Assembly: GCA_902541435.1 (NCBI GenBank) | Contig: CACBQR010000002.1 | Location: 515-64,514, forward strand | Source: an uncultured Alphaproteobacteria bacterium | GTDB taxonomy: Bacteria > Pseudomonadota > Alphaproteobacteria > HIMB59 > GCA-002718135 | Length of the DNA stretch: 64,000 nt | Reading direction: 5' to 3' | In this document: positions 10,316 through 26,583 of the stretch, one piece after another | How the letters are laid out: each line of letters starts with the position of its first letter | How positions within the stretch are numbered: the first letter of the stretch is position 1 | Translations under genes and position numbers: made by a program | The notes under the pieces: generated by a model | Databases searched by the model: none | What the model was told of the DNA's origin: nothing | Seen by the model: the letters and a program-made list of their open reading frames with translations, nothing else

Positions 10316-11368
10316 ATGGAAATTACAATTCTAATTTTTTTATTTGGTGGTCTTTTTTTAGGTTGGTCACTTGGCGCCAATGATGCAGCAAATGTTTTTG
10401 GAACTGCAGTTGGAACACGAATGGTTAGTTTCACAAGTGCAGCAATAATTTGTAGTGTCTTTGTTATTCTAGGTGCAATTATTAGCGGAGCAGGCACAAC
10501 AGAAACTTTAGGTAAGTTAGGTGCTATTAATGCATTGCCTGGTGCTTTTGCAGCATGTGTGGCTGCGGGAATATCTGTATATTTAATGACCAAAGTTGGC
10601 TTGCCTGTTTCAACAACGCAAGCGATTGTTGGAGCAATTGTTGGTTGGAATTTATACACGGGATCTTCAACTAATCTTCAAGTTTTAATTACTATTTTAG
10701 GAACATGGATACTCTGTCCTATTATTGCAGGAGTTATTGCAATGGGTTTATTTACTTTTACAAAAAGAGTTATACTCAATAGAAAGTTACATATTCTCAG
10801 ACTTGATGCCTATACAAGAACAGCTTTACTTTTAGCGGGTACTTTTGGTGCTTATAGTTTAGGTGCAAACAATATTGCCAATGTAATGGGTGTCTTCGTA
10901 CCTATATCACCGTTTACTGATGTTACTATTGGAAATTTATTTGTCTTTTCCTCAAAAGAACAATTATTTCTTCTAGGTGGTTTAGCAATAGCTGTTGGTG
11001 TTTTTACTTACTCGAAAAGAGTTATGTTTACCGTTGGTAATGATCTCTTAAAAATGACACCAGTGGCAGCATTTATTGTTGTTATATCGCATTCTATTGT
11101 TTTATTTTTATTTGCATCCCAGGGTATAAGTGCTTTTTTACAATCTATAAATCTTCCCTCTATACCTTTGGTACCAGTATCAAGTTCCCAAGCTGTTGTC
11201 GGCGGCGTAATTGGAATTGGTCTTTTAAAAGGAGGAAAAGAGGTTCAATGGTCAATTGCAGGTAGAATTTCTTTGGGTTGGATGACGCTACCTATAATTG
11301 CAGCTTTAATTTCTTTAATTGTTTTATTTATTCTAGAAAATATTTTTAATTTAACGGTCTCTTTTTAA
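10316..11368 (+). CDS. pit: inorganic phosphate transporter, PiT family
   Basis: 350 aa polytopic. GANDAANVFGTAVG in the first half and GANNIANVMG in the second half are PiT signature repeats. Confidence 0.9.
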   Translation: MEITILIFLFGGLFLGWSLGANDAANVFGTAVGTRMVSFTSAAIICSVFVILGAIISGAGTTETLGKLGAINALPGAFAACVAAGISVYLMTKVGLPVSTTQAIVGAIVGWNLYTGSSTNLQVLITILGTWILCPIIAGVIAMGLFTFTKRVILNRKLHILRLDAYTRTALLLAGTFGAYSLGANNIANVMGVFVPISPFTDVTIGNLFVFSSKEQLFLLGGLAIAVGVFTYSKRVMFTVGNDLLKMTPVAAFIVVISHSIVLFLFASQGISAFLQSINLPSIPLVPVSSSQAVVGGVIGIGLLKGGKEVQWSIAGRISLGWMTLPIIAALISLIVLFILENIFNLTVSF

Positions 11369-11889
11369 TTAACTGCTCGATAAGAAAAAATAAAATCTTC
11401 TTGGATTTTTGACTCAATAGCTCCTTTTCTTCTTGCTCGCACTAGATCAATAGCTTCTTGTTTTTCATAATTAAATTCAACAAGTAAAATAGCAGCTATA
11501 GTGCCAGCTCTTCCTTTTCCTCCACGGCAATGTAAAACTATGTTTTTACCATCTATCAATTCGTTCTTTAATAAAACTTTTGTTGTTTCCCATTTATATT
11601 TAAAATCTTTATCTGGTGCTCCCATGTCATAAATGGGTAAATGGTACCAATGTAATTTATGTTCATAAATATTTTTGACAAACAAAGTTTTATCACACAA
11701 TTTTTCAAATTCGCTATCTTCAACAAAAGAAGTAATAGAACTACAATTATTATTTTTAAATATTTCTAATTCGTTTGCTAAAATTGTTTCTTCAAATAAA
11801 CCATTAGAGTTAAGACCTGGGAAAGAAGTTAATATAATTTTGCCTGCAAATGACTTAGAGTCAATAAAATCATAATTGCTAAATTGCAT
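11365..11889 (-). CDS. Cys-based (dual-specificity/CDKN3-like) protein phosphatase family protein
   Basis: 174 aa. HCRGGKGRAGT is a CX5R P-loop with an upstream D (YDMGAPD). The start codon directly abuts the stop of the phnZ-like gene (TAAATG on the minus strand). Confidence 0.75.
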   Translation of the reverse strand: MQFSNYDFIDSKSFAGKIILTSFPGLNSNGLFEETILANELEIFKNNNCSSITSFVEDSEFEKLCDKTLFVKNIYEHKLHWYHLPIYDMGAPDKDFKYKWETTKVLLKNELIDGKNIVLHCRGGKGRAGTIAAILLVEFNYEKQEAIDLVRARRKGAIESKIQEDFIFSYRAVN

Positions 11890-12465
11890 TTACGCTTGTT
11901 TAGCTAAAAAAGACTGTCTTGCTTCTTCTAAATAGGGGCGGAAATGTTCAACATCGGGAGTTTTTTTATCTAGAATTTTTGCTAAATCATCAAATCTTCT
12001 AAGCTCTACTGCTTCATCCATAAAAGGTTTGCTTATAAACGCATCTGCTTCTTCTTTTGTGAAAGGACCACCTTGAACTTTTAACGAAAGTTTCGATGCT
12101 TCTGATAGACTATCATAATAACCTTCTTCAACACTTGATAAATATCTTTTTGAGTCAACATGTGCTCTAATTGGTAGAATAACATCCTCACCAAAATATT
12201 TTTTTAAAAAATCAGCACCTAAATTTTCATGATGACCATCTTTCCCTTCATGAATGGGATCGCCGTCCTCATAGATAAGGTGGCCAACATCATGCAGTAA
12301 TGCTGCAGCAATTGTTGGTCCTGGTAATTTATGTTTTTCAGCAAGTTCAGCACATTGGAGTGCGTGCTCAAGCTGGGTCACATCCTCATTACCATATTGA
12401 ATATCAGCACCTTTTGTTTTCAAAAGATGTAAGAGATAGTCTACAATATTTTCTTCCATTTTCAT
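11890..12465 (-). CDS. phnZ: PhnZ-family HD-domain (mixed-valent diiron) oxygenase, phosphonate C-P cleaving type
   Basis: 191 aa. QLEHALQCA, AALLHDVGH, HHENLGADFL, AHVDSKRYL and GGPF match the H...HD...H...H...D ligand pattern and spacing of PhnZ/TmpB-type proteins. Confidence 0.75.
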   Translation of the reverse strand: MKMEENIVDYLLHLLKTKGADIQYGNEDVTQLEHALQCAELAEKHKLPGPTIAAALLHDVGHLIYEDGDPIHEGKDGHHENLGADFLKKYFGEDVILPIRAHVDSKRYLSSVEEGYYDSLSEASKLSLKVQGGPFTKEEADAFISKPFMDEAVELRRFDDLAKILDKKTPDVEHFRPYLEEARQSFLAKQA

Positions 12466-12553
12466 TTATAATTAACTTATTAGAAAATAAATTCAATTCC
12501 AACTTTAATAAGATTGATCAAATTTATAATAATATTTATTAAGTAAATATTTA

Positions 12554-13651
12554 ATGGATAAAAAATTATTAACCCCTGGTCCTCTCACGACATCGATGTC
12601 AACAAAAGAGGCTATGCTTCATGATTGGGGTTCGAGAGATACAAAATTTATTGATCTCAATGCATCAATTAGAGATTCCCTTGTTAAATTAATAGACGGT
12701 GAAGATAAATATCAATGTGTTCCAATGCAGGGAAGTGGAACTTTTGCCGTAGAGTCGATGGTAAGCTCTCTTACTCAAAAAGATTCTAAAATTCTGATTC
12801 TGATCAATGGTGCTTACGGACAAAGAATGAAAAAAATGTGCACATATTTAGGGAGAGATTTTATTGAATATGAAGTTGCTGAACATGAAGTACATGACAT
12901 CAATAAAATTGAAGACTTAATTGATAGCAACAACTTAACACACGTCTTTGCCGTATATTGTGAAACAACATCGGGTATTTTAAATCCTATTGAAGACATT
13001 GCAAAATTGGTTGAGGGGAAAAATTTATCGTTATTCATCGATGCAATGAGTGCCTTTGGTGCATTACCCTTAAGTTCTAAAACAATTACTTTTGATGCTG
13101 TAGCCGCTTCATCAAACAAATGCTTAGAAGGTGTGCCAGGTGTTGGTTTCATTCTTGTTAAAAATGAAGTTATTCAAAATGCAAAAGGCAATAGTCACTC
13201 ACTAAGTCTAGACTTGTATGATCAATGGCAAGCAATGGAAAAAAATAAACAATGGCGATTTACACCTCCAACACACGTATTAGCTGCATTCAACCAAGCT
13301 ATTGAAGAACATAAAGAACAAGGCGGTGTAAAAGGAAGAGGTAAAAGATATAAAAAAAATTGTGAAATTATTTGTAATGGAATGAAAGAGTTGGGATTTG
13401 AGCAACTACTTCCTGATAATTTACAAGCACCAATTATTATTACGTTTAAACAACCTAATGATCCTAAATTTAACTTTGAGAAATTTTATAATGCTCTTAG
13501 TGAAAAAGATTTTTTAATTTATCCAGGAAAACTAACAGTGGCAGAAACTTTTAGAATTGGGTGTATTGGTAATTTAGATGAACAAGACATGATGGATACA
13601 ATAAAAGCTGTAAAAGAAGTCGTTACTGAATTGGGATTAACATTAAACTAA
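12554..13651 (+). CDS. phnW: 2-aminoethylphosphonate--pyruvate transaminase
   Basis: 365 aa. LLTPGPLTTS, YCETTSGILNP, SSNKCLEGVPG (PLP Lys), WRFTPPTH, FRIGCIG. Confidence 0.9.
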   Translation: MDKKLLTPGPLTTSMSTKEAMLHDWGSRDTKFIDLNASIRDSLVKLIDGEDKYQCVPMQGSGTFAVESMVSSLTQKDSKILILINGAYGQRMKKMCTYLGRDFIEYEVAEHEVHDINKIEDLIDSNNLTHVFAVYCETTSGILNPIEDIAKLVEGKNLSLFIDAMSAFGALPLSSKTITFDAVAASSNKCLEGVPGVGFILVKNEVIQNAKGNSHSLSLDLYDQWQAMEKNKQWRFTPPTHVLAAFNQAIEEHKEQGGVKGRGKRYKKNCEIICNGMKELGFEQLLPDNLQAPIIITFKQPNDPKFNFEKFYNALSEKDFLIYPGKLTVAETFRIGCIGNLDEQDMMDTIKAVKEVVTELGLTLN

Positions 13652-13658
13652 CAAAATA

Positions 13659-14291
13659 ATGACAAAAGAAATTGAAATACCATTAGTTAAAGCAACAAAT
13701 GAAAATCTTAAAGGATACGGATATTTAATCGATAGTTTTGAAAATAGTGATATTGAAATTGTTACTTGGCCAAAACAAGGATGGCGCGACATAGAAGAGG
13801 GAACTGGTAATGAAGGTGGAACTACCGAAGGTTCTTTTGATACCTGGTGGCAAGGTGATGTGCTTTATGGACAAAATAATGCTGTCCAACATAAGAGCGA
13901 TTATGAAGTAGATGGAAAATATATACTGGGTTATGCCAATAACCCCGATCAAGAATTGCAAAAAGATAAATATTCAGATCCAACAAAAATATTTCTATGG
14001 CATGCAAATTATCATCCTGATGGAGGTCAGCTTTTTTTTCCTGCAGAAAATAAACCATTTATTTGTCCTTTAGCTTTACCAACAGACGACATCGAACCAG
14101 AACATTTCAAAGCATTTTATTGTGATGGATCAAAAGGTTTGTATATTCATCCAAACATTTGGCATGAAGGGGTGTTTCCAGTTAAAGAAAAACAATCATT
14201 TCATGGAAAACAAGGTAAAGTACATGCAAGAGTTAGCATCGACTTAAAAGAGGAATTTAATAAGTATATTTATTTTAAAACTGCGATCTAA
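13659..14291 (+). CDS. ureidoglycolate lyase (AllA)-like beta-barrel protein, function here unknown
   Basis: 210 aa. N-terminal L..AT.ENLKGYGYLI, NYHPDGGQLFFP and GLYIHPNIWHEGVF parallel AllA blocks (AYG.VI, ERHP...Q.F.P, GVNYH..VWH.P). 7 nt downstream of phnW. Confidence 0.5.
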   Translation: MTKEIEIPLVKATNENLKGYGYLIDSFENSDIEIVTWPKQGWRDIEEGTGNEGGTTEGSFDTWWQGDVLYGQNNAVQHKSDYEVDGKYILGYANNPDQELQKDKYSDPTKIFLWHANYHPDGGQLFFPAENKPFICPLALPTDDIEPEHFKAFYCDGSKGLYIHPNIWHEGVFPVKEKQSFHGKQGKVHARVSIDLKEEFNKYIYFKTAI

Positions 14292-14311
14292 TTATAAATT
14301 TGTATAAAATA

Positions 14312-15100
14312 ATGAAAATTATTCATCTTTCAGACCCTCATATTTATATAGATAAGATTCATGGCATAGATCCTGTCAGTAAATTTAAAAAAGCATTAAG
14401 TCATATAAAAAATAATCATGGTGATGCAGATTTATTTGCCATCACTGGCGATATTACAGACTTAGGTGATAAAGATTCTTATCAGTTATTTATAAAAATC
14501 ATTGATGAAGCAGAGCTGCCAAAGAATTTAAATCCTCAACTCATTATAGGTAATCATGATAACAGAGATGAGTTTAAAATAAACTTTCCTAATATTGAAA
14601 CCGATCCAAATGGCTTTATTCAATACTTTAAGGATATAGATAATAAACGTTTAATTTTTATAGATACTAATCTGATTAATACTCACCAAGGACATTACTG
14701 TGAAGAGAGGCAAGAATGGTTAAATAATATTTTAGGTAAAACTAATACAGATACGTACATCTTTATGCATCATAATCCACTGGCATTAGTAAAAGAGGAA
14801 AGTGATGGAATAGGATTACAACAAAAAAAAGAGTTTCAACAAATTTTAACTAAAAATAATAAGATAATAAAACATATTTTTTTTGGTCATCAACACATTA
14901 CAAGTTCTGGTTCTTATTGTGGTATTACTTTTTCCTCCCCAAGAAGTACTTGGTCTCCTCTAATACCTAACTTTTCAAATGAATATCGTTTAGGAACGGC
15001 TAATACAGATACAAATTATAATGTTGCAATAATTCGATCTGACGCCTTAATTATTCATACAGAGGATTTTTTAAAAACAGAAGTTAATTGGTTTAAATAA
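14312..15100 (+). CDS. GpdQ/CpdA-like metallophosphoesterase (phosphodiesterase)
   Basis: Motifs HLSDPH, GDITDLG, GNHDN, FMHH and GHQH appear in GpdQ-like order. The ATG at 14312 is preferred over the TTG at 14300 reported by the ORF track. Confidence 0.75.
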   Translation: MKIIHLSDPHIYIDKIHGIDPVSKFKKALSHIKNNHGDADLFAITGDITDLGDKDSYQLFIKIIDEAELPKNLNPQLIIGNHDNRDEFKINFPNIETDPNGFIQYFKDIDNKRLIFIDTNLINTHQGHYCEERQEWLNNILGKTNTDTYIFMHHNPLALVKEESDGIGLQQKKEFQQILTKNNKIIKHIFFGHQHITSSGSYCGITFSSPRSTWSPLIPNFSNEYRLGTANTDTNYNVAIIRSDALIIHTEDFLKTEVNWFK

Positions 15101-15104
15101 AAAA

Positions 15105-16211
15105 TTATTTTTTTTCAATTACAAATATTTCATTGTTAAAATAAAGGCCTTTATTTTTAGCAACAATATTTTGAACTACTTTTTCGTAATTTTTTGTTTT
15201 TTCTACCTTCATTACTTTATCATCATCCATTTGATTGACATATATGGAGGCATTCCAAGCAGAAAAAACTAATGATGTCGCTATACCTCCACTGATTTCT
15301 GTTGGTAGAGCTCTCAATTTATATTTAATAATTTTTTTTTCTCCAAAAGATAAATTACTTAATAAATCTTTATCTAAATTTTTCTTAAGATAAGAAATGA
15401 TACTATTTCCAAGAGAAGGAAAAGGGTCCTCTTTTGGCCAAATTTTACGAATTATTTCATTAGCAGGATCTTTTCCTGAAGCATGAATAGTTAATAATTT
15501 CCCTTTTGATTTTAACGCTCGAATCATTGGTTCGATGACATATTTTGATTTCTTTTCTGCTGAAATTCTTGAACGATAAGGCTGTGAAGCAATAATAAGA
15601 TCAAATTTATTATCTGATTTTTTTTTGGTTGGTATTAATTCATTAACATTAAATTCTTGATCTTCACGGTAAATAACCATGACTGAAGGCTCCTTATAAG
15701 TATGGTTACCTGACTTTTTATTAATTTCTATATTCCATTTTTTTTCTAAAAATTCATTTTGTTTTCTTAATTGTTGGGCAAATTCAAGAGAGGTGTCACC
15801 TTTTAATTTAATAATATTCCAATTAATTTTTTTCTGTTTAACGTCATTTTTTGATTTTAGGTTTGCGGCTTCAGCGTAGTGTAAATTTGAAATTACAAAA
15901 ACAGTATTCTTATGCTCAACAAACCTATCGGGTAATTTTTCCAAACCTAATCTTACATCTTCAATACTTATTTCTTTTGTGCAAACTAATAGAGGTACGT
16001 TAGGCCTGGCCTCGTGGCACTGACGCATAACATTCATAAGTAAGGAACCATCACCCATACCAGCATCAAATATTTTTATACCAGGTTTTTGCGGTTTAAT
16101 TTTATTTACGTGAGGGCGTATCGCATCAGCAATTTGATTTTTTTCATTTGTTGTTGTGACAAATAATAAGTATTTTTGTCTGTTATCATAAAACCTGAAA
16201 TTTTTTTTCAT
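15105..16211 (-). CDS. class-I SAM-methyltransferase-like protein, unknown substrate
   Basis: 368 aa. IFDAGMGDGS looks like motif I and IIASQPY resembles an (N/D/S)PPY-like motif IV. Otherwise not recognisable. Confidence 0.45.
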   Translation of the reverse strand: MKKNFRFYDNRQKYLLFVTTTNEKNQIADAIRPHVNKIKPQKPGIKIFDAGMGDGSLLMNVMRQCHEARPNVPLLVCTKEISIEDVRLGLEKLPDRFVEHKNTVFVISNLHYAEAANLKSKNDVKQKKINWNIIKLKGDTSLEFAQQLRKQNEFLEKKWNIEINKKSGNHTYKEPSVMVIYREDQEFNVNELIPTKKKSDNKFDLIIASQPYRSRISAEKKSKYVIEPMIRALKSKGKLLTIHASGKDPANEIIRKIWPKEDPFPSLGNSIISYLKKNLDKDLLSNLSFGEKKIIKYKLRALPTEISGGIATSLVFSAWNASIYVNQMDDDKVMKVEKTKNYEKVVQNIVAKNKGLYFNNEIFVIEKK

Positions 16212-16213
16212 TA

Positions 16214-17326
16214 CTAATAAAGTCCCATTGATTTAGCAGAAGAGATGAAGGCTTCTTTATTGCCAATAAAGTTTTTACCTCGTTCTCCTAAAAACGCATC
16301 ATCTACTATATTATTCCATTCTTGAACAGGAACTTTTATTTCATTTAAGTTAAGAGGAACCTCTAAAGAACGCATAAATTCACTCAGATGATTTGCGGCA
16401 TTCTCTAGGTTATCGTTAAAAATTAGTTTTAGTCTTTCTTCAGCTACACTATCAATTCCAACCATACTTTTAGTAATCATGGGTAATGTAAATGAGCAAG
16501 CAATACCATGTTGAATGCCGTAATTGAGCGTCACAGGGTATGATAGATTGTGCGCAATAGCAGTTTTTGTATTGGAAAACGCTAAGCCAGCATGAACGCA
16601 TGCCAGTGCAATGTTTGAACGTAATTCAACGCTTCTTAAATCTTTAGCGAGAAGTGGTAAATTTTCTAATACTAATTTTGATGCTTGTATTGCATGAGAA
16701 GCAGAAATTGGGTTTGCATTAATATTCCAAATACTTTCCATTGAATGAGAGAGAGCATCTAAACCTGTTGAAATGGTCAAGCCTAAAGGCTTATCAACCA
16801 TAATTGATGGATCGATAATTGCTTTTTCTGCATAAAGAGATTTATGCGCCAAAGATAATTTATTGTTTTTTTCTTTATCCCAAATTGTGGCCCAACACGT
16901 AAGCTCACTTGATGTTCCTGAAGTTGTAGGTATTGCAATAATCTTGATTGGATTTTCGACTCTTGGACTTTTCTTATTGCGAACGAAATCTGTTAGATAT
17001 TCTTGTTTATCTTTAAAAGCAGCAATTGCTTTAGCTGTGTCTGTAACAGAGCCACCACCTATAGCTAAAATATAATCTACCGATTCATTGATTGAAGAAA
17101 ATTTTTTTTGTAGCTCTAAAATATCCTTATAATCTGGATTAGGTTGAACATCCGTCATAATGGATAGTGGTGGATTTGAAGAAGATTTTAATTCATCGCT
17201 ATATTTTTTAAAAATTTCTTCTGGATGAGTGATTATGATGTAGTTCTTATTTTTAAGAGCATCATGTACTTCTTTAAATCTATTTTCTCCAAAGATAATT
17301 TCAACAGGATTAAAATAATTCCACAT
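16214..17326 (-). CDS. iron-containing (group III) alcohol dehydrogenase
   Basis: 370 aa. AIGGGSVTDTAK is the GGGS NAD(P) loop. Metal-binding His blocks are DALSHSMES, AHNLSYP and HGIAC. Confidence 0.85.
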   Translation of the reverse strand: MWNYFNPVEIIFGENRFKEVHDALKNKNYIIITHPEEIFKKYSDELKSSSNPPLSIMTDVQPNPDYKDILELQKKFSSINESVDYILAIGGGSVTDTAKAIAAFKDKQEYLTDFVRNKKSPRVENPIKIIAIPTTSGTSSELTCWATIWDKEKNNKLSLAHKSLYAEKAIIDPSIMVDKPLGLTISTGLDALSHSMESIWNINANPISASHAIQASKLVLENLPLLAKDLRSVELRSNIALACVHAGLAFSNTKTAIAHNLSYPVTLNYGIQHGIACSFTLPMITKSMVGIDSVAEERLKLIFNDNLENAANHLSEFMRSLEVPLNLNEIKVPVQEWNNIVDDAFLGERGKNFIGNKEAFISSAKSMGLY

Positions 17327-17330
17327 TACA

Positions 17331-18410
17331 TTAAATTGATTTTGCCGCTTTAGTTAAAATTGTCATTTTCTCAATTGCTTGTTCTCGAGTAAAGAAACCT
17401 AAACCACAATCTGGTGCAGCTATTAAGCGGTGTTCATCAATATGTTCAAGTGAATCTTTGATACGAACTCTTACTTCTTCAACAGATTCCATTCTGCTTT
17501 TTGCAATATCAATAAATCCAAAAATTACTTTTGTTTTAGTAAATTTTTCTAAAAGATTTAAATCATTATGCCTATGTGAATCTTCTAAAGATACTTCATC
17601 AATAGTTGAATCATCTACAAGTGATGCAATTCTATCATAAGCATCTAAATCAGCCTTTTTATAACCTTCTGAATCTAATGAATTAGGATAACCACAACAA
17701 ATATGGCAAACACGTTGCACTTCTTTAGGTATACCATGCATCATTCTTTCTAAATTTTCCATACCATATGAATGAGCTTCATCAGGCTTTCTAGCAAATA
17801 CTGGTTCATCAATTTGAATATACTGACAACCTGCATTTACAAGTGCTTTAACTTCTTTATTAAGGGCTAATGCTAAATCAAAACCAAGTTTTTTCATGTC
17901 ATCATAGTAGTTGTTAGCAATTGAATCTGTTATTGTCATTGGTCCAGGTAGGGTAATTTTAACTGGATTTTTTGTAAATTGTTGTGCACTCTTCCAGTCT
18001 AGATGCATACGTATTTCTTTACTTGAAATCGGTGCAACAATAGTTGGAAGATCAGCTTCGAACGCGCCTTGTCTTACTGACTTATGTGTAACTTCTTTAA
18101 AACTTACTCCATTTAAAAATCGACATTGATATAATACGTAACTCTCACGTCTGACTTCTCCATCTGTTGGAACATCAATACCCGCATTTACTTGATCAGT
18201 TATAACTTCTTTAATTGCTGCTAAAAATAATTTTTCAGCATCTGCACCTGCAGACTCTAATGCTTTTTCATATGCGCCAGGTGACCAATTTGATAATAAT
18301 CCTTTTGACGCTTTTCTCTCTTCTTCTGATTTTGTCCCTAAAAACCAATCTTGAATAGGTGTTTGTTTCGGTTTTGGATAAGCACCTATTGTAGTTGTTT
18401 TAAGAGGCAT
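17331..18410 (-). CDS. short cobalamin-independent methionine-synthase-like (MetE C-terminal domain) Zn-dependent methyltransferase
   Basis: 359 aa. N-terminal TTTIGAYPKP. Zn-ligand motifs HICCGYP and APDCGLGF. Confidence 0.75.
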   Translation of the reverse strand: MPLKTTTIGAYPKPKQTPIQDWFLGTKSEEERKASKGLLSNWSPGAYEKALESAGADAEKLFLAAIKEVITDQVNAGIDVPTDGEVRRESYVLYQCRFLNGVSFKEVTHKSVRQGAFEADLPTIVAPISSKEIRMHLDWKSAQQFTKNPVKITLPGPMTITDSIANNYYDDMKKLGFDLALALNKEVKALVNAGCQYIQIDEPVFARKPDEAHSYGMENLERMMHGIPKEVQRVCHICCGYPNSLDSEGYKKADLDAYDRIASLVDDSTIDEVSLEDSHRHNDLNLLEKFTKTKVIFGFIDIAKSRMESVEEVRVRIKDSLEHIDEHRLIAAPDCGLGFFTREQAIEKMTILTKAAKSI

Positions 18411-18442: not shown

Positions 18443-18467
18443 ACAGCGGCTTTTATAAAGCCGCTGT
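18443..18467 (-). terminator. Rho-independent terminator downstream of the SBP gene
   Basis: ACAGCGGC-loop-GCCGCTGT (8-bp GC-rich stem), followed on the minus strand by TTTTATTTT. Confidence 0.7.
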
Positions 18468-18497: not shown

Positions 18498-19751
18498 TTA
18501 CATAAGATCGTTTATTTCTTCCATCATTTCTTCTTGGAGATCACCCATATCATCAGCGTCGCCTGTAGCAATTTCTTCTGTGTAATCATAGATTACCTGC
18601 GTAACAGCTAATCCATTTTCTCCAGGATATGCAAACCAATCTGCAAGAAGTGGAAGTTGTTCAACTGCAGTAAGTTTATTAGGGTTTTTACTATAGAAAT
18701 CACCTAATAATTCATTCGCTGCTTTGTTTGGTGGAACATATCCAGTTGTTTCAGCAACTAATGCAGCACCGATACCTGATGTAATGAACTTTAAGAAAGT
18801 CCATGCAGCATCAACTCTTGCTGGATCATCAGATGTAGACACTAACATTGCAGCGTTTCCACCTGCTGGTAATCTTGCAGGTGTTCCATTGTTAACTCCA
18901 GCCATTCCAGGGAATGGTGCAGTCTTTAAAACAAAGTCTGCCTTTGCAGCATTAACTGAACCCAAGCTTGAAGTAGACCAGAACATCATACCAATTGTAC
19001 CTGCGTTAAACGCAGCTTGACCATCAGCAATTGAATAGTTTGGCATATTACATCCGCTCATGATTGCTTTCATTTGCTCTAACGTTGCAAGTCCTGCATC
19101 ACCACCCATATTTACAGCCCCATCTTTAACCATTGGAACATTCTGAGTGTGCATTAATGCTTGGTGGAACCAGTTACCTGTGATGTTCCAACCAAAGTAT
19201 AGAGTTCCTTTACCTGCTGCTTCCAATTTATTACATGCTGCAATAACTTCGTCCCAGTTAGTTGGAATACTATTTACACCTGCTTCAGCTAATAAATCCA
19301 TGTTATAATATCCAACTGGCGTTGATACAGAAAATGGTAATCCATAAACTTCACCACCAAATGTTGAAAGACTTAACATAGCAGAATGGTAACCATCTTT
19401 TTCAAAAGCAGCTTCTTTTGCAATAAATGGCTCTAAAGACTTAGCAATACCTTTGTCAACTAGAGGTGCTTGTCTGTTAAGACCTTGCATTGTTACATCT
19501 GGTAAATTACCTGAAGTAGACTCTCTGAAGATTGTTGCAGTTGCATCCTCATAGTTTTCATAAGTTGCTCTAAATTTAACTTGAATATCTGGATGTGCTT
19601 TTTCAAACTCTGGCATAATAGCTTGGAAAGTTACATCGAATAATCCTGAATAAGGATAAGCAACTTCTATTTCAATAGACTTAGCTGAATTAACAGAACC
19701 ATAAAAACCAAAAGCTAATACGGCTGCAAATCCTGTAATTAATTTTTTCAT
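18498..19751 (-). CDS. ABC transporter substrate-binding protein, family 1 (UgpB/CUT1-like); ligand unknown
   Basis: 417 aa with an N-terminal signal peptide (MKKLITGFAAVLAFGFYGSVNSA). Family-1 SBP architecture, noticeably higher GC than its surroundings, own terminator. Confidence 0.8.
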   Translation of the reverse strand: MKKLITGFAAVLAFGFYGSVNSAKSIEIEVAYPYSGLFDVTFQAIMPEFEKAHPDIQVKFRATYENYEDATATIFRESTSGNLPDVTMQGLNRQAPLVDKGIAKSLEPFIAKEAAFEKDGYHSAMLSLSTFGGEVYGLPFSVSTPVGYYNMDLLAEAGVNSIPTNWDEVIAACNKLEAAGKGTLYFGWNITGNWFHQALMHTQNVPMVKDGAVNMGGDAGLATLEQMKAIMSGCNMPNYSIADGQAAFNAGTIGMMFWSTSSLGSVNAAKADFVLKTAPFPGMAGVNNGTPARLPAGGNAAMLVSTSDDPARVDAAWTFLKFITSGIGAALVAETTGYVPPNKAANELLGDFYSKNPNKLTAVEQLPLLADWFAYPGENGLAVTQVIYDYTEEIATGDADDMGDLQEEMMEEINDLM

Positions 19752-19802: not shown

Positions 19803-19830
19803 GTTACAATTTTATTACGAAAATATTACT
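19803..19830 (-). promoter_or_regulatory. Candidate Pho-box-like element (three direct repeats at exact 11-bp spacing)
   Basis: Minus strand reads AGTAAT-N5-CGTAAT-N5-TGTAAC (plus-strand GTTAC 19803, ATTAC 19814, ATTAC 19825). It lies 52-79 nt upstream of the SBP start, and a GGAGGG RBS follows. Confidence 0.4.
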
Positions 19831-19887
19831 AAAAAATAAGCTTATTTTTCCACAGCATTAAGAAAAATTAGAGAAAAACTGGTTTAT

Positions 19888-21330
19888 TTACCAAGGTAGC
19901 GAAAAGGTTTTTACATTAGTAAAACTTTTCATTGCTTCAATAACACCCTCTTTGTAACCAAGACCTGAATCTTTAATTCCTCCAAAAGGAGACATTTCAA
20001 TTCTATAACCTGGAACCTCCCAAATATTTACCGTACCAACATTTAAACCTTGAATATATTTTTTTGCTCGCATGAAGTTATTTGTACATACACCAGATGA
20101 TAATCCGAATGCGGTTGAATTAGATATTTTCATTACAGCTTCATCGTCATTAGGCACACGAATGATTGGGATAACTGGACCAAATGTTTCTTCTAAAACT
20201 AATTCACTTTTAGGATCAACATGATCTACAACTATTGGAGGTAACAAAGCACCCTTTCTTCCAGGGTGATATAAAATTTTTGCGCCGTCTTCTTCAGCCA
20301 TAGAAACTCTTTTATCAAAAAGTTCTGCAGCTTGAGCATTAACAACTGTACCTAAGTCTGTTTCCATATTCATAGGATCACCAAATTTAATTTTCTTTGC
20401 ACGCTCAAGAGCCATTTCAACAAATTGATCTGCAATGGATTCTTGAACCAATATTCTTTTAACAGCTGTACAACGTTGACCAGAATTTTTCGTTGCTCCC
20501 GTAACAGCTAGTTCAACAGCTTTTTTAAGATCATCACCATCTAAGTCATTTAAAACAATTAATGGATCATTACCACCTAACTCAAGAACAGTTCTTTTGT
20601 ATCCAGCTTGTTCAGCAATTAATTTTCCTACACCCACACTGCCTGTAAAAGTAATTAGATCAATGTTTGGATTTTTGATCATTTCTGATCCAATGTCTTG
20701 AGGCCATCCAGTTACAACTGAAAACATTTCGGGTGGCAGGCCTGCTTCATATAAAACATCGGCGAGTACCATTGCTGTTAAAGGTGTTAATTCTGTTTGT
20801 TTACATACAGTACAATTATTAGTTGCAATTGAAGGTGCAATTTTATGCGCTACCATATTCAAAGGATGATTAAATGGGGTGATTGCTGAGATTGCCGTTA
20901 AAGGTTCTCTTATGGTAAATATTTTTCTGGCTTTTCCATGTGGAGTTAAATCACAAGAAAATATTTCTCCATCATCATGAATACAAAGTTGAGCCGTTAA
21001 TGAAAATACATCGAAAGCTCTTCCTACTTCGTATAAAGAATCTTGTTTTGAGATACCAAGTTCTAAAGTAATAATATCAGAAATTTCTTCTTTTCTTTTA
21101 ACAAGTACTTCTGCAGCAGTTTGAAGAATTTTTTGTCTCTCATATCTTGTAAGTTTAGGCTGATAATTTGCAGCTATATCTAAAGCCTTTCTTGCATGCT
21201 CTGCGGTACCGGCTGGAACCGTTCCGATTACTTCACCTGTAAAAGGGTACTCAACATTTATTGTTTTATCTGAAGTAACTTTTTCTCCAGCAATACGCAT
21301 TGCTTCATTAATCATTTTTTTGTGCATCAT
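19888..21330 (-). CDS. phnY: phosphonoacetaldehyde dehydrogenase (aldehyde dehydrogenase family)
   Basis: 480 aa ALDH. ELGGNDP and GQRCTA (catalytic Cys) are present. 4-nt overlap with phnA upstream. Specific function is inferred from context. Confidence 0.75.
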
Positions 21331-22568
21331 AGGGCTCCATTTATTGCATAATAAAATGCATCATAGTTATATAATTGTTTGCTAGTATCTAAGTTTTGTA
21401 ATTTTAAATTTGATATGAATGGCACTTCTCTTTCATGGAGTCCTCCATGAGAACGTAAAGGTTCATTTAATCCAGAAAGATTGTGTTTATCTTCCGATGA
21501 ACCAATAGTCATAAATTCTGAAGACATACATATAATATCTCCCATTCTATCAGGAGGTAAATTGTAAGTAGAGCATCCTTCATCTTTTGTTAAAACAACT
21601 TCTATATCTTTTATTTCTTTAATAGCATTTACAACTGAATCTACCTTGCTCTTGTCTTCTAAATAAATTGTTGCAAAAGAACCAAGTGAACCATGATGAA
21701 CAACATATGGATCTGTAATTGGTAGGATGACTTTAGCCATGTTTGGTTCAAATTTTTTATCTAAATAATCTTGTAAAAATATTGCATTAGGTGAACCATC
21801 TTCTTTTGATTTTGGTTTCATTCCGTGATCTGCTGTGATGATTATAGAAACATTCTCATTATTTAAAAGACCAATATATTTATCAAACATTGCATAAAAT
21901 TTATTTGCTGTTTCATTTCCCGGTGCATATTTGTGTTGAATATAATCCGTAGTCGATAAATACATAATATTTGGTTTAAACTCTTCAAGAAGTTTTACAC
22001 CTGCAGCCATCACAAATTCAGAGAGTCCTTCAGAATATACTTCTGGCACTGGCATCCCCAACCAATCGTTTACATTATCTATACCATTGAGATCTTTTGT
22101 TGCTTGATCAGATTTTTCAGCAGAAAAACAAATAGCTCTCTCATCATCAAAACTTAATCCGTTTCCTAAAAGTGTTCTCAACTTGTCTTTTGCAGTAACA
22201 AGAGCAATTTTAGAACCAGAATTGTAAAATTTTTCAAAAATAGTTGGTGCTCGCATATATTTTGGGTCATTCATCATAACTTCTTCACCAGTCTCAGGTG
22301 TATAAAAGAAGTTTCCGCATATACCGTGTACAGAACTTGGTTGGCCTGTTACAATCGAAATGTTATTTGGATTTGTAAAACTTGGAATAGCGCTGTGAAC
22401 AAGTAGGTTTTCACCACTTGCAATTAATTTATCAAGATTTGGTGTAAGATTAGATTTTGATGCTTCTTCGAGATACTCTTTTTGACTACCATCAAGGCAT
22501 ATAACAATAGCAGTTTTTGAGAAAGAGTTTGGATATTCTCTTTTATTAATTTCTAAATTATCGGACAC
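21327..22568 (-). CDS. phnA: phosphonoacetate hydrolase (alkaline-phosphatase superfamily)
   Basis: 413 aa, GTG start. [42 protein letters not shown]. Confidence 0.85.
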
Positions 22569-22744
22569 GAATTCAACTAATATATATTATTAAAAATACG
22601 AATTTATAGTTATCTGCTAGTTAAACTCAATCATAATTTGAATATTTGTTAATAAAATTGAAATAAAACTGAAATAAATAGATTTAAAATATTCTCAAAT
22701 TTAATAAAATTTTGTAGATTAAAGTTAAGATACAGGGGGAATGA

Positions 22745-23878
22745 GTGGGGACAATATCACTTAAAAATATTTCAAAGTCATTTGGGTCTACACAAGTACT
22801 TAATAATTTGAATGTTGATATAAACGATGGAGAATTCTTAACGTTAGTTGGTCCATCTGGTTGTGGTAAATCTACATTACTTAGAATAATTGCAGGATTG
22901 GAACAGCAGACTTCAGGTGATGTATTAATAGATAATAAAAATGTAAATAGAGTTAGAGCCAGTGAAAGAGATTTGGCAATGGTCTTCCAATCATATGCTC
23001 TTTATCCTCATCTCACAGTAAGAAGAAATTTAGAAACTCCATTAAGACTCAGGGATTATAATGCATTTGAAAGACTGCCCTTGATTGGTAATTTTTCTCC
23101 AAGCAAAAAAGAGAAAACAGAATCTATAAATCAATTAGTAAATAAAACTTCTGAAACTCTAAAAATTTCAGAACTATTGGATAGAAAACCAGGACAATTG
23201 TCAGGTGGTCAAAGACAAAGAGTTGCTCTTGGTCGTGCTATGGTTAGAGAGCCTGTTGCCTTTTTAATGGATGAGCCTCTTTCAAATTTAGATGCAGCTT
23301 TGAGAGTTCACATGCGATCTGAACTATCTGAACTTCATAATTCACTTAAAACTACTTTTGTGTACGTAACACATGATCAAGCAGAAGCGTTAACTATGTC
23401 TTCTAGAATGGCAGTTATGATTGATGGAAATTTATTACAACTAGATACACCTCAAGAAGTATATGATAATCCTTCCTCATTAAGTGTAGCTCAGTTTGTT
23501 GGAAGTCCAAAAATAAATATATTTAAAGGAACTTCGGACTCAAGTGGGACAGTAAGTTTTCTCAACGTTAATTTAAAAAGAAAAAGTTCTGAAAGTAATA
23601 CAGATTTACATATTGGTATTCGACCAGAACATTTAGAAATTACAAATGAAAGTAATGAAAATACATTTAGTGGAACAGTTGCATATAGAGAAAATTTAGG
23701 TTCAGATATTTTCTTTCATGTAAATATTGAAGACGGTTCAAATAAAATAATTGTAAGGGGCTTACCACAATTTACTCACCAAATTTCAAACGGTTCAAGT
23801 GTAAATATAAAAAGAGTTTCAGATAAAGCATTACTATTTAATCAAGCAGGAATGAGGGTTCAATTTACTAATGCATAA
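22745..23878 (+). CDS. ABC transporter ATP-binding protein, UgpC/MalK type
   Basis: 377 aa, GTG start after a GGGGGA RBS. GPSGCGKST, LSGGQRQR, FLMDEP, plus a C-terminal TOBE-like extension. Confidence 0.9.
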   Translation: MGTISLKNISKSFGSTQVLNNLNVDINDGEFLTLVGPSGCGKSTLLRIIAGLEQQTSGDVLIDNKNVNRVRASERDLAMVFQSYALYPHLTVRRNLETPLRLRDYNAFERLPLIGNFSPSKKEKTESINQLVNKTSETLKISELLDRKPGQLSGGQRQRVALGRAMVREPVAFLMDEPLSNLDAALRVHMRSELSELHNSLKTTFVYVTHDQAEALTMSSRMAVMIDGNLLQLDTPQEVYDNPSSLSVAQFVGSPKINIFKGTSDSSGTVSFLNVNLKRKSSESNTDLHIGIRPEHLEITNESNENTFSGTVAYRENLGSDIFFHVNIEDGSNKIIVRGLPQFTHQISNGSSVNIKRVSDKALLFNQAGMRVQFTNA

Positions 23879-24827
23879 TTCAAAAGCTCACATATGGTTT
23901 ATTGCTCCAGCAATCATACTGATGATAATTATTTTAATTTTTCCTCTTTTTCTTGCAGGAGGAATTTCTTTTACTGACTATAATTTGGGAAACAAAACAT
24001 TCGAGTGGGTTGGACTAGAAAATTATGACAAGATGTTCAATCGAAAAACATATGTCAAAATGATTTGGGCCACAGCGACGTATGTTATTATTGTCGTTCC
24101 AATTTCTGTTGTACTTGGATTATGTGCTGCAATGCTCTTAAATTCACTAAGGTTTGGCGCTGATATATATAAAACAATTTTCTTTCTTCCAGTTATGGCA
24201 ACTCTTCTTGCAATGGCAATTGCATGGGAATTTACTCTTCATCCAACATTAGGAATTGTAAATAGTTTTTTAGCAAATGGGTGTGGAGGAGTTAGGGAAT
24301 TCATTCTTGGTTTTCATTGGTTGCCGTGGGTAGACTCACAAGAAAGCTGGTATGCTGTAGCATGTGCAAACAACATGGATTTTCCATATTGGTTAAAACA
24401 AAAAAATACAGCGATTTGGACAGTATGTTTCATCGGAATTTGGCAGGCTTTTGGTTTTAACATGGTTTTATATTTAGCTGGCTTAACAAGTATACCAAGA
24501 GAGTTATACCAAGCAGCAGAAATGGATGGGGCTAAATCTACATGGGAACAATTTAAACTTGTTACATGGCCAATGCTTGGTCCAACAACGTTGTTTGTTG
24601 TGACTATTACTACCATTAGAACATTTCAGGTATTTGATACAATCGAAATACTGACCAAAGGTGGTCCATCAAAAACAACGTATGTCATGATGTATGCAAT
24701 TTTTGAAAAAGCTATTCAACAAAACTTAACAAGTATCGGTGCAGCAATCACTGTTGTCTTTATTGGATTTATTCTTGTGTTAACGTTTTTCCAAAGATAT
24801 GTCATTGAGAAGAGGGTTCATTATTAA
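23871..24827 (+). CDS. ABC transporter permease, UgpA/MalF-like
   Basis: 318 aa, 6 TM, EAA-type loop AAEMDGAKSTWEQFKLVTWP. Confidence 0.85.
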   Translation: MHNSKAHIWFIAPAIILMIIILIFPLFLAGGISFTDYNLGNKTFEWVGLENYDKMFNRKTYVKMIWATATYVIIVVPISVVLGLCAAMLLNSLRFGADIYKTIFFLPVMATLLAMAIAWEFTLHPTLGIVNSFLANGCGGVREFILGFHWLPWVDSQESWYAVACANNMDFPYWLKQKNTAIWTVCFIGIWQAFGFNMVLYLAGLTSIPRELYQAAEMDGAKSTWEQFKLVTWPMLGPTTLFVVTITTIRTFQVFDTIEILTKGGPSKTTYVMMYAIFEKAIQQNLTSIGAAITVVFIGFILVLTFFQRYVIEKRVHY

Positions 24828-25720
24828 TGGAAGCTAAACAATATATTGGGGAAGGTTGGAAGCATGCAATCTTAATAATTGGTGCTATCGTAGTAATGCT
24901 CCCTTTTTATATGATGGTTTCAATGTCATTAAAATCTCAGCAAGAAATCCAATCAATTTCTGGTGGTCTCATTGGTGCGCAAGAAACTCAAACGTTTCCC
25001 GTATGTGTTAAAACTGGCTATTCAGAAGAAACATGTACAATGAAGCCATATCAATACAACTATTGGTTTGCTTTTGAAAAAGCTCCTATTCCTAGATACT
25101 TAATGAATGGTGTCATTGTTACTTTATCAATCTTCATCATTCAGGTTTTAGTCGCCTTACCATGTGCGTATGCACTCGCAAAGTTACGGTTTTACGGACG
25201 AGAATTTGTTTTCTCGATGGTTTTATTTTGCTTGCTCATTCCAGTTCACGGAATTGCGCTTCCATTATATGTTATGTTGGCTCAGGCAGGATTAGTTGAC
25301 ACCTATTCCGCCTTGATACTTCCCTGGACTATATCGGTGTTTGGAATTTTTTTAATGCGACAATTTTTTATGACTGTGCCCGATGAATTAATTGACGCCG
25401 CCAGGATGGATGGAATGGGAGAGTATGCTATAGTCTGGAAAGTAATGCTTCCAACTGCAATACCAGCATTACTTGCTTTTGCAATATTCTCAGTTGTTGC
25501 ACACTGGAATGATTATTTCTGGCCTCGTATGGTAATAACAGGAAATAGAGATCTCTTTACTCCACCACTTGGTATCAGAGAATTCAGAGGTGGAATTGAT
25601 AGTGACGAATTTGGTCCAATGATGGCTTCGATAGTTACTGTAACTGTTCCTCTTATTGTTGCTTTTATAATCGCGCAAAAACGATTTATTGAAGGAATTA
25701 CTTTGACAGGCATGAAGTAA
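24827..25720 (+). CDS. ABC transporter permease, UgpE/MalG-like
   Basis: 297 aa, EAA loop AARMDGMGEYAIVWKVMLP. Confidence 0.85.
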   Translation: MEAKQYIGEGWKHAILIIGAIVVMLPFYMMVSMSLKSQQEIQSISGGLIGAQETQTFPVCVKTGYSEETCTMKPYQYNYWFAFEKAPIPRYLMNGVIVTLSIFIIQVLVALPCAYALAKLRFYGREFVFSMVLFCLLIPVHGIALPLYVMLAQAGLVDTYSALILPWTISVFGIFLMRQFFMTVPDELIDAARMDGMGEYAIVWKVMLPTAIPALLAFAIFSVVAHWNDYFWPRMVITGNRDLFTPPLGIREFRGGIDSDEFGPMMASIVTVTVPLIVAFIIAQKRFIEGITLTGMK

Positions 25721-25734
25721 ATTCTTATCTACTG

Positions 25735-26583
25735 ATGACATTGTCAGTAAATTTTATTTTTATCTTAATTCTTGTATCTGCTCTATGTCACGCAGTTTGG
25801 AGTGCTATAATAAAATCAAGTAAGAACCCTTTATCGTTAATGGGTATAACATCTGTCTTAGAAGTTACTATTTTTTTACCCTTAACATTTACTGTTCCAT
25901 TTCCAACTTTGGAGGTTTGGTATTTTTTAATTGCAACTGTAATCATTCATGTCTTCTACAGACTAAATGTTATCTACTCATATAGGTACGGTGATCTCTC
26001 TTACATATATCCAATTTCTAGAGGAAGTTCATGTTTGTTTGTAGCGATCATTAGTATTTTATTTTTAAGTTCTGATATTAGTGTTGCTGGTTTCGTAGGA
26101 ATTTTAATTGTTTGTATTGGGTTATTTTTAATTTCTTATTCTAAAAATTTATCTTTTAACTTCAGAGGTTTTGCTCTCGCAATATCAACGGCTATTCTAA
26201 TTACTGCTTACACTTTAGTTGACGGAGTCGGGGTGAGACTTTCTGAAAATGGTTTTTCCTATATTTACTGGCTCTTCACACTTAATGGAATACCTTTGCT
26301 AATTATTGGTTTGATCTCGAAAGATGGTTTACGAAAAAGAGAAACATACACATTTAGATCGGGGATTGCTGCTGGTGTATTTGCAACAAGTAGTTACGCA
26401 ATTGTTGTTTGGAGTATGCAATTTATAGAAATAGCGTATGTCTCAAGTATCAGAGAAATCAGTATTGTCTTTGCCACCATTATTGGAATGGTTTTTTTAT
26501 TTGAAAGAAATGCTAAATCGAGAATAATTCCCTCTATTTTAATAGTAAGTGGTATTTCAGTGGTCTATTTTCAAATTCTTTAG
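25735..26583 (+). CDS. EamA/DMT-family transporter
   Basis: 282 aa, about 10 TM, two-repeat DMT architecture. Confidence 0.65.
   Translation: MTLSVNFIFILILVSALCHAVWSAIIKSSKNPLSLMGITSVLEVTIFLPLTFTVPFPTLEVWYFLIATVIIHVFYRLNVIYSYRYGDLSYIYPISRGSSCLFVAIISILFLSSDISVAGFVGILIVCIGLFLISYSKNLSFNFRGFALAISTAILITAYTLVDGVGVRLSENGFSYIYWLFTLNGIPLLIIGLISKDGLRKRETYTFRSGIAAGVFATSSYAIVVWSMQFIEIAYVSSIREISIVFATIIGMVFLFERNAKSRIIPSILIVSGISVVYFQIL

Follow-up and report, generated by a model that had tools for sequence, protein, structure and literature searches.

A modular, putative phosphonate-scavenging island of SAR11 with a CUT1-type importer

What does the importer of a phosphonate gene island bring into the cell, and which of the genes packed around it deal with the cargo? 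The question is raised by positions 11365-26583 of a 64,000-nucleotide stretch of DNA from an uncultured alphaproteobacterium (assembly GCA_902541435.1, contig CACBQR010000002.1, positions 515 to 64,514 of the forward strand; hereafter the window). Here the enzymes PhnW, PhnY and PhnA of 2-aminoethylphosphonate (2-AEP) degradation are interleaved with an ATP-binding cassette (ABC) importer of the CUT1 type and with genes that have no place in that pathway. The G+C content of the window is ~30%, and its closest relatives, according to an alignment scan with the solute-binding protein (SBP) of the importer against GTDB species genomes, are single-cell genomes of SAR11 (Pelagibacterales). A previous reading made from the DNA letters alone (the sequence-only reading) had proposed that the importer takes up a phosphonate ester, for example glycerol-AEP, from which an esterase releases AEP. 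We favour, with about even confidence, the explanation that this is a modular phosphorus (P)-scavenging island of SAR11 that converts two-carbon phosphonates to phosphate, and that its CUT1 importer takes up derivatised rather than free phosph(on)ates.

Open reading frames (ORFs), Pfam and NCBIfam place 15 genes in 11365-26583, in exact agreement with the limits drawn in the sequence-only reading, and split them over four transcription units. They are given here in the order of transcription, with lengths in amino acids (aa).

Unit a
11890-12465, minus strand: putative HD-domain oxygenase, PhnZ/TmpB family, 191 aa (TIGR03276, 201.5 bits, cut-off 214.6)
11365-11889, minus strand: DSP/PTP-like Cys-phosphatase, 174 aa (Pfam PTP-SAK, 49 bits; PDB, SsoPTP, E 3.4e-10)
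Unit b
12554-13651, plus strand: PhnW, 2-AEP:pyruvate transaminase (NF010006, 511 bits, cut-off 296; TIGR02326, 459 bits, cut-off 401)
13659-14291, plus strand: AllA (ureidoglycolate lyase) superfamily protein, 210 aa (Pfam Ureidogly_lyase, 42 bits, cut-off 23)
14300-15100, plus strand: GpdQ/SpdA-like metallophosphoesterase (MPE), 266 aa (Metallophos, 62 bits; SpdA model NF050112, 174.5 bits, cut-off 400)
Unit c
21327-22568, minus strand: PhnA, phosphonoacetate hydrolase (TIGR02335, 468.6 bits, cut-off 407.55)
19888-21330, minus strand: PhnY, phosphonoacetaldehyde dehydrogenase (TIGR03250, 798.7 bits, cut-off 635.65)
18498-19751, minus strand: family-1 (CUT1) SBP, 417 aa (SBP_bac_8/1, ~120 bits)
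17331-18410, minus strand: MetE-like zinc thiol methyltransferase of the core (short) type, 359 aa (Meth_synt_2, 122 bits; PDB 3rpd, E 7e-44)
16214-17326, minus strand: predicted PhpC-type iron alcohol dehydrogenase, Fe-ADH (TIGR03405, 362.4 bits, cut-off 423.7; runner-up family, 159 bits)
15105-16211, minus strand: X368, a 368-aa protein of the class I S-adenosylmethionine (SAM)-methyltransferase fold without a Pfam family (sub-threshold Methyltransf_31 only)
Unit d
22745-23878, plus strand: MalK/UgpC-like ATPase with OB_MalK and TOBE_2 domains
23871-24827, plus strand: UgpA/UgpE-like permease
24827-25720, plus strand: UgpA/UgpE-like permease
25735-26583, plus strand: EamA/DMT membrane protein (best family TIGR03340, 'phosphonate utilization associated', 142.5 bits, cut-off 288)

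Within units b and d and in the stretch from the MetE-like gene to X368, genes overlap or are separated by at most 14 bases. The genes of unit c share a strand, as had been stated, and their order was corrected to phnA-phnY-SBP-MetE-like-ADH-methyltransferase (X368) in the direction of transcription.

The catabolic core is the best defined part of the island. PhnW, PhnY and PhnA all exceed their NCBIfam equivalog cut-offs by wide margins (a third PhnW score, 465 bits, is likewise above its cut-off), and phnA and phnY overlap by 4 bases in an operon-like manner, so that the claim of a complete PhnW-PhnY-PhnA route stands. 2-AEP would be transaminated by PhnW. The Fe-ADH has TIGR03405 as its best family by >200 bits, lies in the same co-oriented gene string as phnA-phnY and is kept without phnW in a class of SAR11 loci (type B, below); by family membership it is a predicted 2-hydroxyethylphosphonate (2-HEP) dehydrogenase/phosphonoacetaldehyde reductase. 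The sequence-only reading had already suggested that this enzyme processes either the alcohol moiety of the ester or 2-HEP, and the latter agrees with the PhpC literature: Piazza et al. 2026 (PMC13576164) showed that HEP is oxidised to phosphonoacetaldehyde by PhpC-type enzymes of degradative clusters, which often lack phnW, and phpC, phnW, phnY, phnA and phnZ have been catalogued in Pelagibacterales single-cell genomes, with phpC inside phnW operons (Lockwood et al. 2022, PMC9381506). Both substrates are thus predicted to funnel to phosphonoacetaldehyde, which PhnY would oxidise to phosphonoacetate, and PhnA would split the latter into acetate and phosphate.

A further entry point may be provided by the HD-domain protein, which shows full-length homology to TmpB (PDB 6npa, E 2.6e-32) and PhnZ (PDB 4mlm, E 7.5e-29) and scores 154 and 152 bits with the TmpB and PhnZ1 equivalog models (cut-off 300). 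No partner hydroxylase of the Fe/2-oxoglutarate type (PhnY*/TmpA) was found among the island genes with Pfam or NCBIfam. A stand-alone phnZ in degradative clusters has a precedent (PMC13576164, Fig. 2 legend), and the enzyme would cleave the carbon-phosphorus (C-P) bond of 1-hydroxylated alkylphosphonates taken from the environment. We conclude that, for AEP, HEP and 1-hydroxyphosphonates, the catabolic core represents known biochemistry, in a host that is likewise known. At least two of the seven genes previously listed as unassigned thus have described roles (the PhpC-type Fe-ADH and the HD protein of the PhnZ/TmpB family), and the other five, the AllA-like, MPE, X368, MetE-like and Cys-phosphatase genes, remain without an assigned step.

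To follow the island through related genomes, we used the SBP alignment scan with one genome per GTDB species, which gave 560 relatives; the best 80 of the 560 were fetched, 75 of them SAR11, and the loci were classified from a tblastn matrix of all island proteins with flanks of 10 kb. The full island was present in 35 of the 75 SAR11 loci. Six carried an extra ABC cassette between the MPE and AllA-like genes, three had a divergent MPE with phnW beyond the 10-kb flank, 15 belonged to type B, 15 were truncated contigs and one was different from all of these. The whole gene order persists in loci L005 and L079. Since the order is kept in SAR11 genomes at 52-88% protein identity to the window, the arrangement is not due to chance; the accessory genes stay with phnWYA across SAR11 lineages, which was the synteny check that the sequence-only reading had called for.

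The deviating loci show how the island is composed. Type B consists of ATPase-permease-permease and phnA-phnY-SBP-MetE-like-ADH, with no phnW, AllA-like, MPE, HD, phosphatase or EamA gene within 10 kb, and lies among methyl-cycle genes (a PF02574 homocysteine methyltransferase, an X368 paralogue of 39% identity, MetK and AhcY). This composition matches the published signature of a HEP-dedicated cluster (PMC13576164), and type B is probably such a cluster. The minimal variant L004 has phnA-phnY-X368, MPE-AllA-like-phnW, HD-phosphatase and EamA, and lacks the ABC importer, the SBP, the MetE-like gene and the ADH; its EamA gene lies beside phnA. L006 lacks the MetE-like gene; there, X368 is followed by a PF02574 homocysteine S-methyltransferase, and the locus contains an inserted second Ugp-like cassette, which includes a GDPD diesterase. 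Because of these variants (type B, L004, L006) we conclude that the island is modular, with one module of phnW/AllA-like/MPE, HD/phosphatase, phnA-phnY-X368 and EamA, and a second one of ABC/SBP/MetE-like/ADH.

Two observations on these loci are added here. In L062 (13504-18344), the type-B cluster is directly beside thioredoxin, MetK (SAM synthetase) and AhcY (S-adenosylhomocysteine hydrolase). The MPE/AllA-like junction is an insertion hot spot for CUT1 cassettes (L008 15586-18598, L040 15708-21251, L006 13221-19248), one type of which carries a 479-aa GDPD glycerophosphodiesterase; MPE alleles beside the insertions are 61-68% identical to that of the window, and the flanking genes 95-99% in the close relatives L008 and L040.

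The importer belongs to the second module, and its CUT1 architecture is complete, with a family-1 SBP, two MalFG-type permeases and an ATPase with a TOBE tail. To our knowledge, the known 2-AEP transporters (PhnCDE/PhnD, PhnS, AepX, AepP) do not include the CUT1 system of the island. No importer gene matched PhnD or PhnE in NCBIfam, and the ATPase scored 139 bits with the ABC_phnC model versus 388 bits with UgpC; the description of the importer as CUT1/Ugp-like and not PhnCDE-like is therefore confirmed. The system is not an equivalog of Ugp either, as all scores are under the cut-off (UgpB 65 versus 411, UgpA 104 versus 335, UgpE 128 versus 297 and UgpC 388 versus 432 bits), and the best PDB matches of the SBP are weak (E 1e-17 to 1e-18), with the glycerol-3-phosphate (G3P)-binding protein 9lff on top. 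A conservative alternative had been an AepX-type SBP for free 2-AEP. Because AepX, PhnS and AepS belong to pfam13343 (SBP_bac_6) (PMC8316502) and the SBP of the island matches SBP_bac_1/8 only, we rejected this assignment. Phosphonates are not mentioned in the SAR11 SBP screen of Clifton et al. 2024, and the SAR11 genomic-island papers describe a C-P lyase cluster and not the present island.

The clue to the cargo came from outside SAR11. There, SBP orthologues always form part of an ATPase-permease-permease-SBP cassette, in most cases with a LysR regulator ahead of it; the orthologous group is tight across Alpha- and Gammaproteobacteria (62-77% pairwise identity despite differing neighbour genes), and the ATPase and permeases accompany the SBP in every context, with 50-69% identity outside SAR11. 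The gene after the SBP varies, being usually an MPE of the window's subfamily or a MetE-like gene of the window's family. We found MPE cassettes in Phaeobacter inhibens, P. porticola and Tritonibacter mobilis (L171 5741-11095, L172 5793-11135 and L174 5743-11925, respectively), in two metagenome-assembled genomes of Hyphomicrobiales and on one Joint Genome Institute (JGI) metagenome contig, with SBPs 61-68% identical to that of the window. The P. inhibens SBP, of which WP_102877754 is the strain P54 copy, is 64% identical to that of the window. In T. mobilis, an HAD phosphatase follows the MPE. The Phaeobacter and Tritonibacter cassettes (SBP 61-65% identical) are located on plasmids or megaplasmid-size replicons, on two Phaeobacter plasmids between mobile or unrelated genes. 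Tistrella mobilis has the same SBP-MPE cassette with an SBP of only 42% identity. The cassette MPEs are 30-36% identical to the window MPE, match no other gene in the window and share with it the motif HxGH(Y/F)CxxRxxWL; in all, this MPE subfamily adjoins SBP orthologues in at least six lineages. A MetE-like gene (52-60% identical to that of the window) stands beside the SBP orthologue in L090 and L178 and divergently, with a Zn-dependent alcohol dehydrogenase (Zn-ADH), in L176. In L088, the SBP orthologue is accompanied by a CoA-transferase, a metallo-beta-lactamase (MBL) hydrolase, an aldehyde dehydrogenase, a Zn-ADH and an HAD phosphatase, and a Na/Pi-cotransporter gene recurs near the non-SAR11 cassettes.

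Since the cassettes of several lineages hold only the importer and the MPE, the simplest reading is that the MPE acts on the imported substance, which would be a phosphodiester-like compound. As far as gene content can tell, these cassettes are the strongest new support for the ester idea. The cognate cytoplasmic enzyme of the SBP group would accordingly be a GpdQ/SpdA-like MPE or a core-MetE-like zinc thiol methyltransferase, and because of this pairing what the CUT1 importer carries is most likely a phosph(on)ate in esterified or otherwise derivatised form and not a free acid; the MPE would release the free phosphonate from it inside the cell. The ester hypothesis of the sequence-only reading is thus partly supported: its coupling of importer and esterase is retained on the strength of the self-contained cassettes outside SAR11, and its choice of ester is not carried over, as nothing singles out glycerol-AEP. 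The island MPE retains all calcineurin-like metal motifs (HLSDPH, TGDITD, GNHDNR, MHHNP, FGHQH) and has GpdQ as its best PDB match (2zo9, E 6.6e-13, 52 bits). Hydrolysis of phosphonate monoesters by GpdQ is cited in a passage of PMC9371700 (its ref. 50), and we propose that the MPE is a diesterase or phosphonate-monoesterase for the imported ligand.

Several observations weigh against this explanation. The MPE is far under the SpdA cut-off and only distant kin of GpdQ, and both the Fe-ADH and the HD protein score a little under the curated cut-offs of their families. Outside SAR11, some cassettes have no MPE: L090 and L178 carry the MetE-like gene, and in L001 from a marine member of the Paracoccaceae the SBP orthologue is found with a gamma-aminobutyrate (GABA) transaminase, a Zn-ADH and a hydroxypyruvate-isomerase-like protein. 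Within SAR11, MPE and SBP are separable, the 15 type-B loci having the SBP without an MPE within 10 kb and L004 the MPE without the importer, and in the window the two genes belong to different transcription units.

The same separation suits an importer for free phosphonates, an explanation that we consider rather unlikely. It holds that the SBP diverged from a G3P-type binder towards free 2-HEP and/or 2-AEP and that the MPE is an independent phosphodiester scavenger sharing the P-stress island. Type-B clusters, which combine the SBP with phnY-phnA and the ADH and lack an MPE, fit a self-sufficient HEP cluster; the SBP is in the phnA-phnY operon and the MPE in the phnW operon; and, as there is no AepX-type SBP in the window, some other AEP importer is needed. 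However, the orthologous SBPs of 61-68% identity occur without any C-P-cleaving enzyme and have only the MPE or the MetE-like protein as a partner, so that those bacteria would be able to take free HEP or AEP no further.

The importer and the MPE might also form a passenger cassette for glycerophosphocholine or glycerophosphoethanolamine, with phnWYA nearby only because both occupy a P-stress hypervariable region; the MetE-like or PF02574 protein and X368 would then handle head-group methyls (choline to betaine to methionine). UgpB is the best NCBIfam match of the SBP and G3P-binding 9lff its best PDB match, second Ugp-like cassettes, one with GDPD, are inserted at the same spot in L006, L040 and L008, and in L006 a PF02574 gene (BHMT family) stands in for the MetE-like gene. 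Partners elsewhere include an aldehyde dehydrogenase resembling betaine-aldehyde or succinate-semialdehyde dehydrogenase (BADH/SSADH), a Zn-ADH, an HAD phosphatase and an MttB-family gene. Nevertheless, SBP, MetE-like gene and ADH are embedded between phnY and X368, co-oriented and with little space between the genes, and remain linked to phnY-phnA in type B, and the scores identify phosphonate enzymes (799 versus 311 bits for the aldehyde dehydrogenase, 362 versus 123 bits for the ADH) and not betaine-aldehyde or choline dehydrogenases. We therefore regard the passenger cassette as distinctly unlikely.

The ester scheme of the sequence-only reading left no place for the methyltransferase, the MetE-like, the AllA-like and the Cys-phosphatase genes. 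The MetE-like protein comprises the catalytic domain only, without the folate-binding N-terminal domain, and keeps the zinc ligands H236-x-C238 and C335 (DCG), which are conserved in five homologues. X368 was modelled with AlphaFold2 (predicted local distance difference test, pLDDT, 83; predicted template-modelling score, pTM, 0.85). In Foldseek, its model matched histamine N-methyltransferase 1jqe first (E 5.5e-10, template-modelling (TM) score 0.47-0.62) and many small-molecule methyltransferases at probability 1.0. Invariant segments are the glycine-rich motif I FDAGMGDG and the Arg-rich ASQPYRSR, and the family is small, with 785 clusters (50% identity) at E<=1e-3 among 1.84 billion representatives. 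Neither the MetE-like protein nor X368 had tblastn matches among plasmids. X368 was also compared with named methyltransferases: it has no invariant cysteines, ArsM, DhpI and BtaA are all absent among the 50 Foldseek matches listed, and it shows no DUF3419 domain, so that these three identities were rejected; nor is it the MesX partner of a MesD synthase, as it has no DUF1852, a domain that matched nowhere in the island in Pfam.

In genomes or positions that lack the MetE-like gene, X368 or its paralogue has a homocysteine S-methyltransferase of PF02574 (BHMT/MmuM type) as its neighbour (L006 11318-12223, L062 196-1266), an apparent case of non-orthologous displacement involving two folds of zinc-thiol methyltransferases. 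Distant X368 homologues (~40% identical, ~470 aa) were found at 80 loci (L091-L170) on GC-rich, apparently soil metagenome contigs, none of which has phn genes. In 32 of these loci, e.g., L107 2848-5142, the homologue is followed by one of the methylenetetrahydrofolate reductase (MTHFR) in PDB 7xg9 (E 4e-44), and in 14 a core MetE lies within a few genes of it; X368 homologue, MTHFR and core MetE form an undescribed three-gene module, which may be a methionine-synthase or methyl-cycle system. Because X368 recurs beside homocysteine methyltransferases of two unrelated folds, in SAR11 as in distant contigs, we infer that X368 and the MetE-like protein form a methionine/SAM-linked methyl-transfer module. 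Such a module may methylate a phosphonate, in which case the neighbouring enzyme would recycle homocysteine; alternatively, the imported compound may be the source from which the MetE-like enzyme draws a methyl group.

The second option can be taken further. In other bacteria the MPE holds the position after the SBP gene that the MetE-like gene holds here, and the MetE-like enzyme would be a non-hydrolytic alternative to the MPE: a thiol-dependent dealkylase that would transfer the methyl group of imported alkylated phosph(on)ates (methyl esters of 2-HEP or 2-AEP, N-trimethyl-AEP or its esters) to homocysteine, with methionine and the free or demethylated phosphonate as products. We offer this as a speculative idea of low probability. 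If it is true, a sulfur- and phosphorus-starved SAR11 cell gains both a methionine methyl group and phosphate from a single dissolved organic molecule.

Highly improbable in our view is a route for N-methylated aminophosphonates, in which the island serves for N,N,N-trimethyl-2-aminoethylphosphonate or esters of it, with the MetE-like or PF02574 protein demethylating the quaternary amine (or glycine betaine formed by a TmpB-like HD oxygenase) onto homocysteine and PhnW taking the demethylated product. TmpB is the best PDB match of the HD protein, two unrelated homocysteine-methyltransferase folds alternate at one place, and X368 resembles amine N-methyltransferases. On the other hand, Pfam and NCBIfam revealed no TmpA/PhnY*-type hydroxylase or N-methyl oxidase (PbfB/C/D type) in the island, the HD protein scores higher with the general PhnZ model than with the TmpB equivalog (201 versus 154 bits, cut-off 300), and SAM-dependent methyltransferases do not demethylate. 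Interconversion or biosynthesis, whereby phnW and phpC turn scavenged 2-AEP into 2-HEP for the cell's own products and X368, with its SAM-methyltransferase fold, methylates the product, was proposed for phpC within phnW operons (Lockwood et al. 2022, PMC9381506) and suits a reversible PhpC reaction that thermodynamically favours HEP (PMC13576164), but is barely credible here, since the island has a conserved phnY-phnA pair, phnW is missing from the 10-kb surroundings of type B, the neighbourhood is one of P scavenging, and no pepM, aepY, mpnS, hepD or cytidylyl- or glycosyl-transfer genes were found in the island with Pfam or NCBIfam.

The two other genes without a step accompany the first module. 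The AllA-like protein aligns to AllA over its C-terminal half only (residues ~107-182); in a profile search of the PDB, AllA was the sole family matched (1xsr, E 2e-9; common motifs HP.G.Q.F.P and G..YH.N.WH), and its NCBIfam score of 35 bits is below the AllA equivalog level (cut-offs 160-282). Its gene follows phnW in every examined SAR11 variant that has phnW; outside SAR11 it was found only on Paraburkholderia chromids (52% identity), beside a major facilitator superfamily (MFS) gene and without phn genes. The Cys-phosphatase gene is translationally adjacent to the HD gene and stays beside it in SAR11 variants at 69-87% identity; homologues on plasmids were uninformative as to its role.

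Unit c contains a possible control element between the SBP stop and the MetE-like start:

18443-18467, minus strand: strong terminator-like hairpin with an 11-bp stem, 6 GC pairs and a T-run

A hairpin 3' of a binding-protein gene is a common means of over-expressing the SBP relative to downstream genes. This one is likely an attenuator that separates phnA-phnY-SBP from MetE-like-ADH-X368 and gives excess SBP transcript; the search was a consensus scan only, which found nine such sites versus 7.9 expected.

The left flank of the island (window 1-11368) contains the following genes:

491-1492: GT4 (family 4) glycosyltransferase
1513-2169: MIP channel
2166-3071, minus strand: Ppx/GppA
3104-3562: His_Phos_1 histidine phosphatase
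3623-5722: polyphosphate kinase Ppk1
5949-6944 and 6941-7747, both minus strand: GT4 and Metallophos pair
7826-8668, minus strand: acyltransferase
8880-9299, minus strand: LMWPc (low-molecular-weight protein tyrosine phosphatase, LMW-PTP)/ArsC-like gene
9647-11368: PhoU_div and PHO4 phosphate transporter

Because of these genes, we place the island inside a larger phosphorus-stress block. The GT4 and Metallophos pair resembles the PlcP/Agt lipid-remodelling genes of SAR11. A 117-aa ORF with a GTG start (10306-10659, minus strand) lies wholly within the PHO4 gene in antisense orientation and is probably spurious. Further downstream, one more transporter was considered:

36031-39707: ABC transporter (SBP, fused permease, ATPase) with weak NCBIfam matches only (PhnS, PhnT2, PhnU2)

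We rejected it as an AepXVW-like system, since its SBP (38694-39707), the sole pfam13343 SBP in the window, is an FbpA ferric-iron binder (PDB 1q35, E 2e-86).

What is new is a conserved, previously undescribed importer family in a phosphonate role, linked, as judged from comparative genomics, to either an esterase of the GpdQ/SpdA kind or a core-MetE-like enzyme. New as well are five conserved genes without an assigned step, which may point to gaps in the hydrolytic pathways described for phosphonates. No bacterial group is more abundant in the surface ocean than SAR11. If the CUT1 system is the entry for 2-HEP, 2-AEP or their esters, estimates of marine phosphonate uptake that rely on genes overlook a major route; the access of cells lacking C-P lyase to esterified phosphonates would be explained as well. 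Because close orthologues exist in culturable Phaeobacter and Tritonibacter, the question of the ligand is testable without growing SAR11.

The island was compared with the closest known systems. With the Ugp system (UgpBAEC and UgpQ) it shares the CUT1 importer with a TOBE-tailed ATPase, two permeases and a family-1 SBP; however, the SBP remains far below the cut-off of the UgpB equivalog (65 versus 411 bits), and the non-SAR11 cassettes are LysR-linked. In Enterobacter aerogenes, gpdQ is located in a ugp-like operon. The orthologous non-SAR11 cassettes likewise have a binuclear metallophosphoesterase after the SBP, although the island MPE is only 52 bits from GpdQ. The hydrolytic 2-AEP pathway is represented by all three enzymes and by the operon-like phnA-phnY, but phnW is in a separate convergent unit with the AllA-like gene and the metallophosphoesterase, there is no LysR/PhnR-type regulator in the island, and the transporter is not PhnCDE, PhnSTUV or AepXVW. 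As in HEP-degradative clusters (PMC13576164, PMC9381506), a TIGR03405-family Fe-ADH is found beside phnY-phnA, and the published HEP-dedicated architecture (PMC13576164, section 2.1) is that of the SAR11 type-B loci, with ADH and without phnW; SAR11 is not discussed in that paper, and the island ADH differs in its core-MetE-like and SAM-methyltransferase-fold neighbours and in its score (362 versus 424). Full-length homology of the HD protein connects the island with oxidative C-P cleavage by PhnY*/PhnZ and TmpA/TmpB, whereas the 2-oxoglutarate dioxygenase is missing and the HD gene is paired with the Cys-phosphatase instead. Finally, the MetE-like protein resembles the core methionine synthases MesA-D (Price et al. 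2021, PMC7857596) in consisting of a ~360-aa Meth_synt_2 domain only, in keeping the zinc ligands and in having the short MetE 3rpd as its best structure match; it differs in that no DUF1852 (MesX) or corrinoid protein is nearby, and its recurrent neighbours are instead the CUT1 SBP cassette and, in SAR11, X368.

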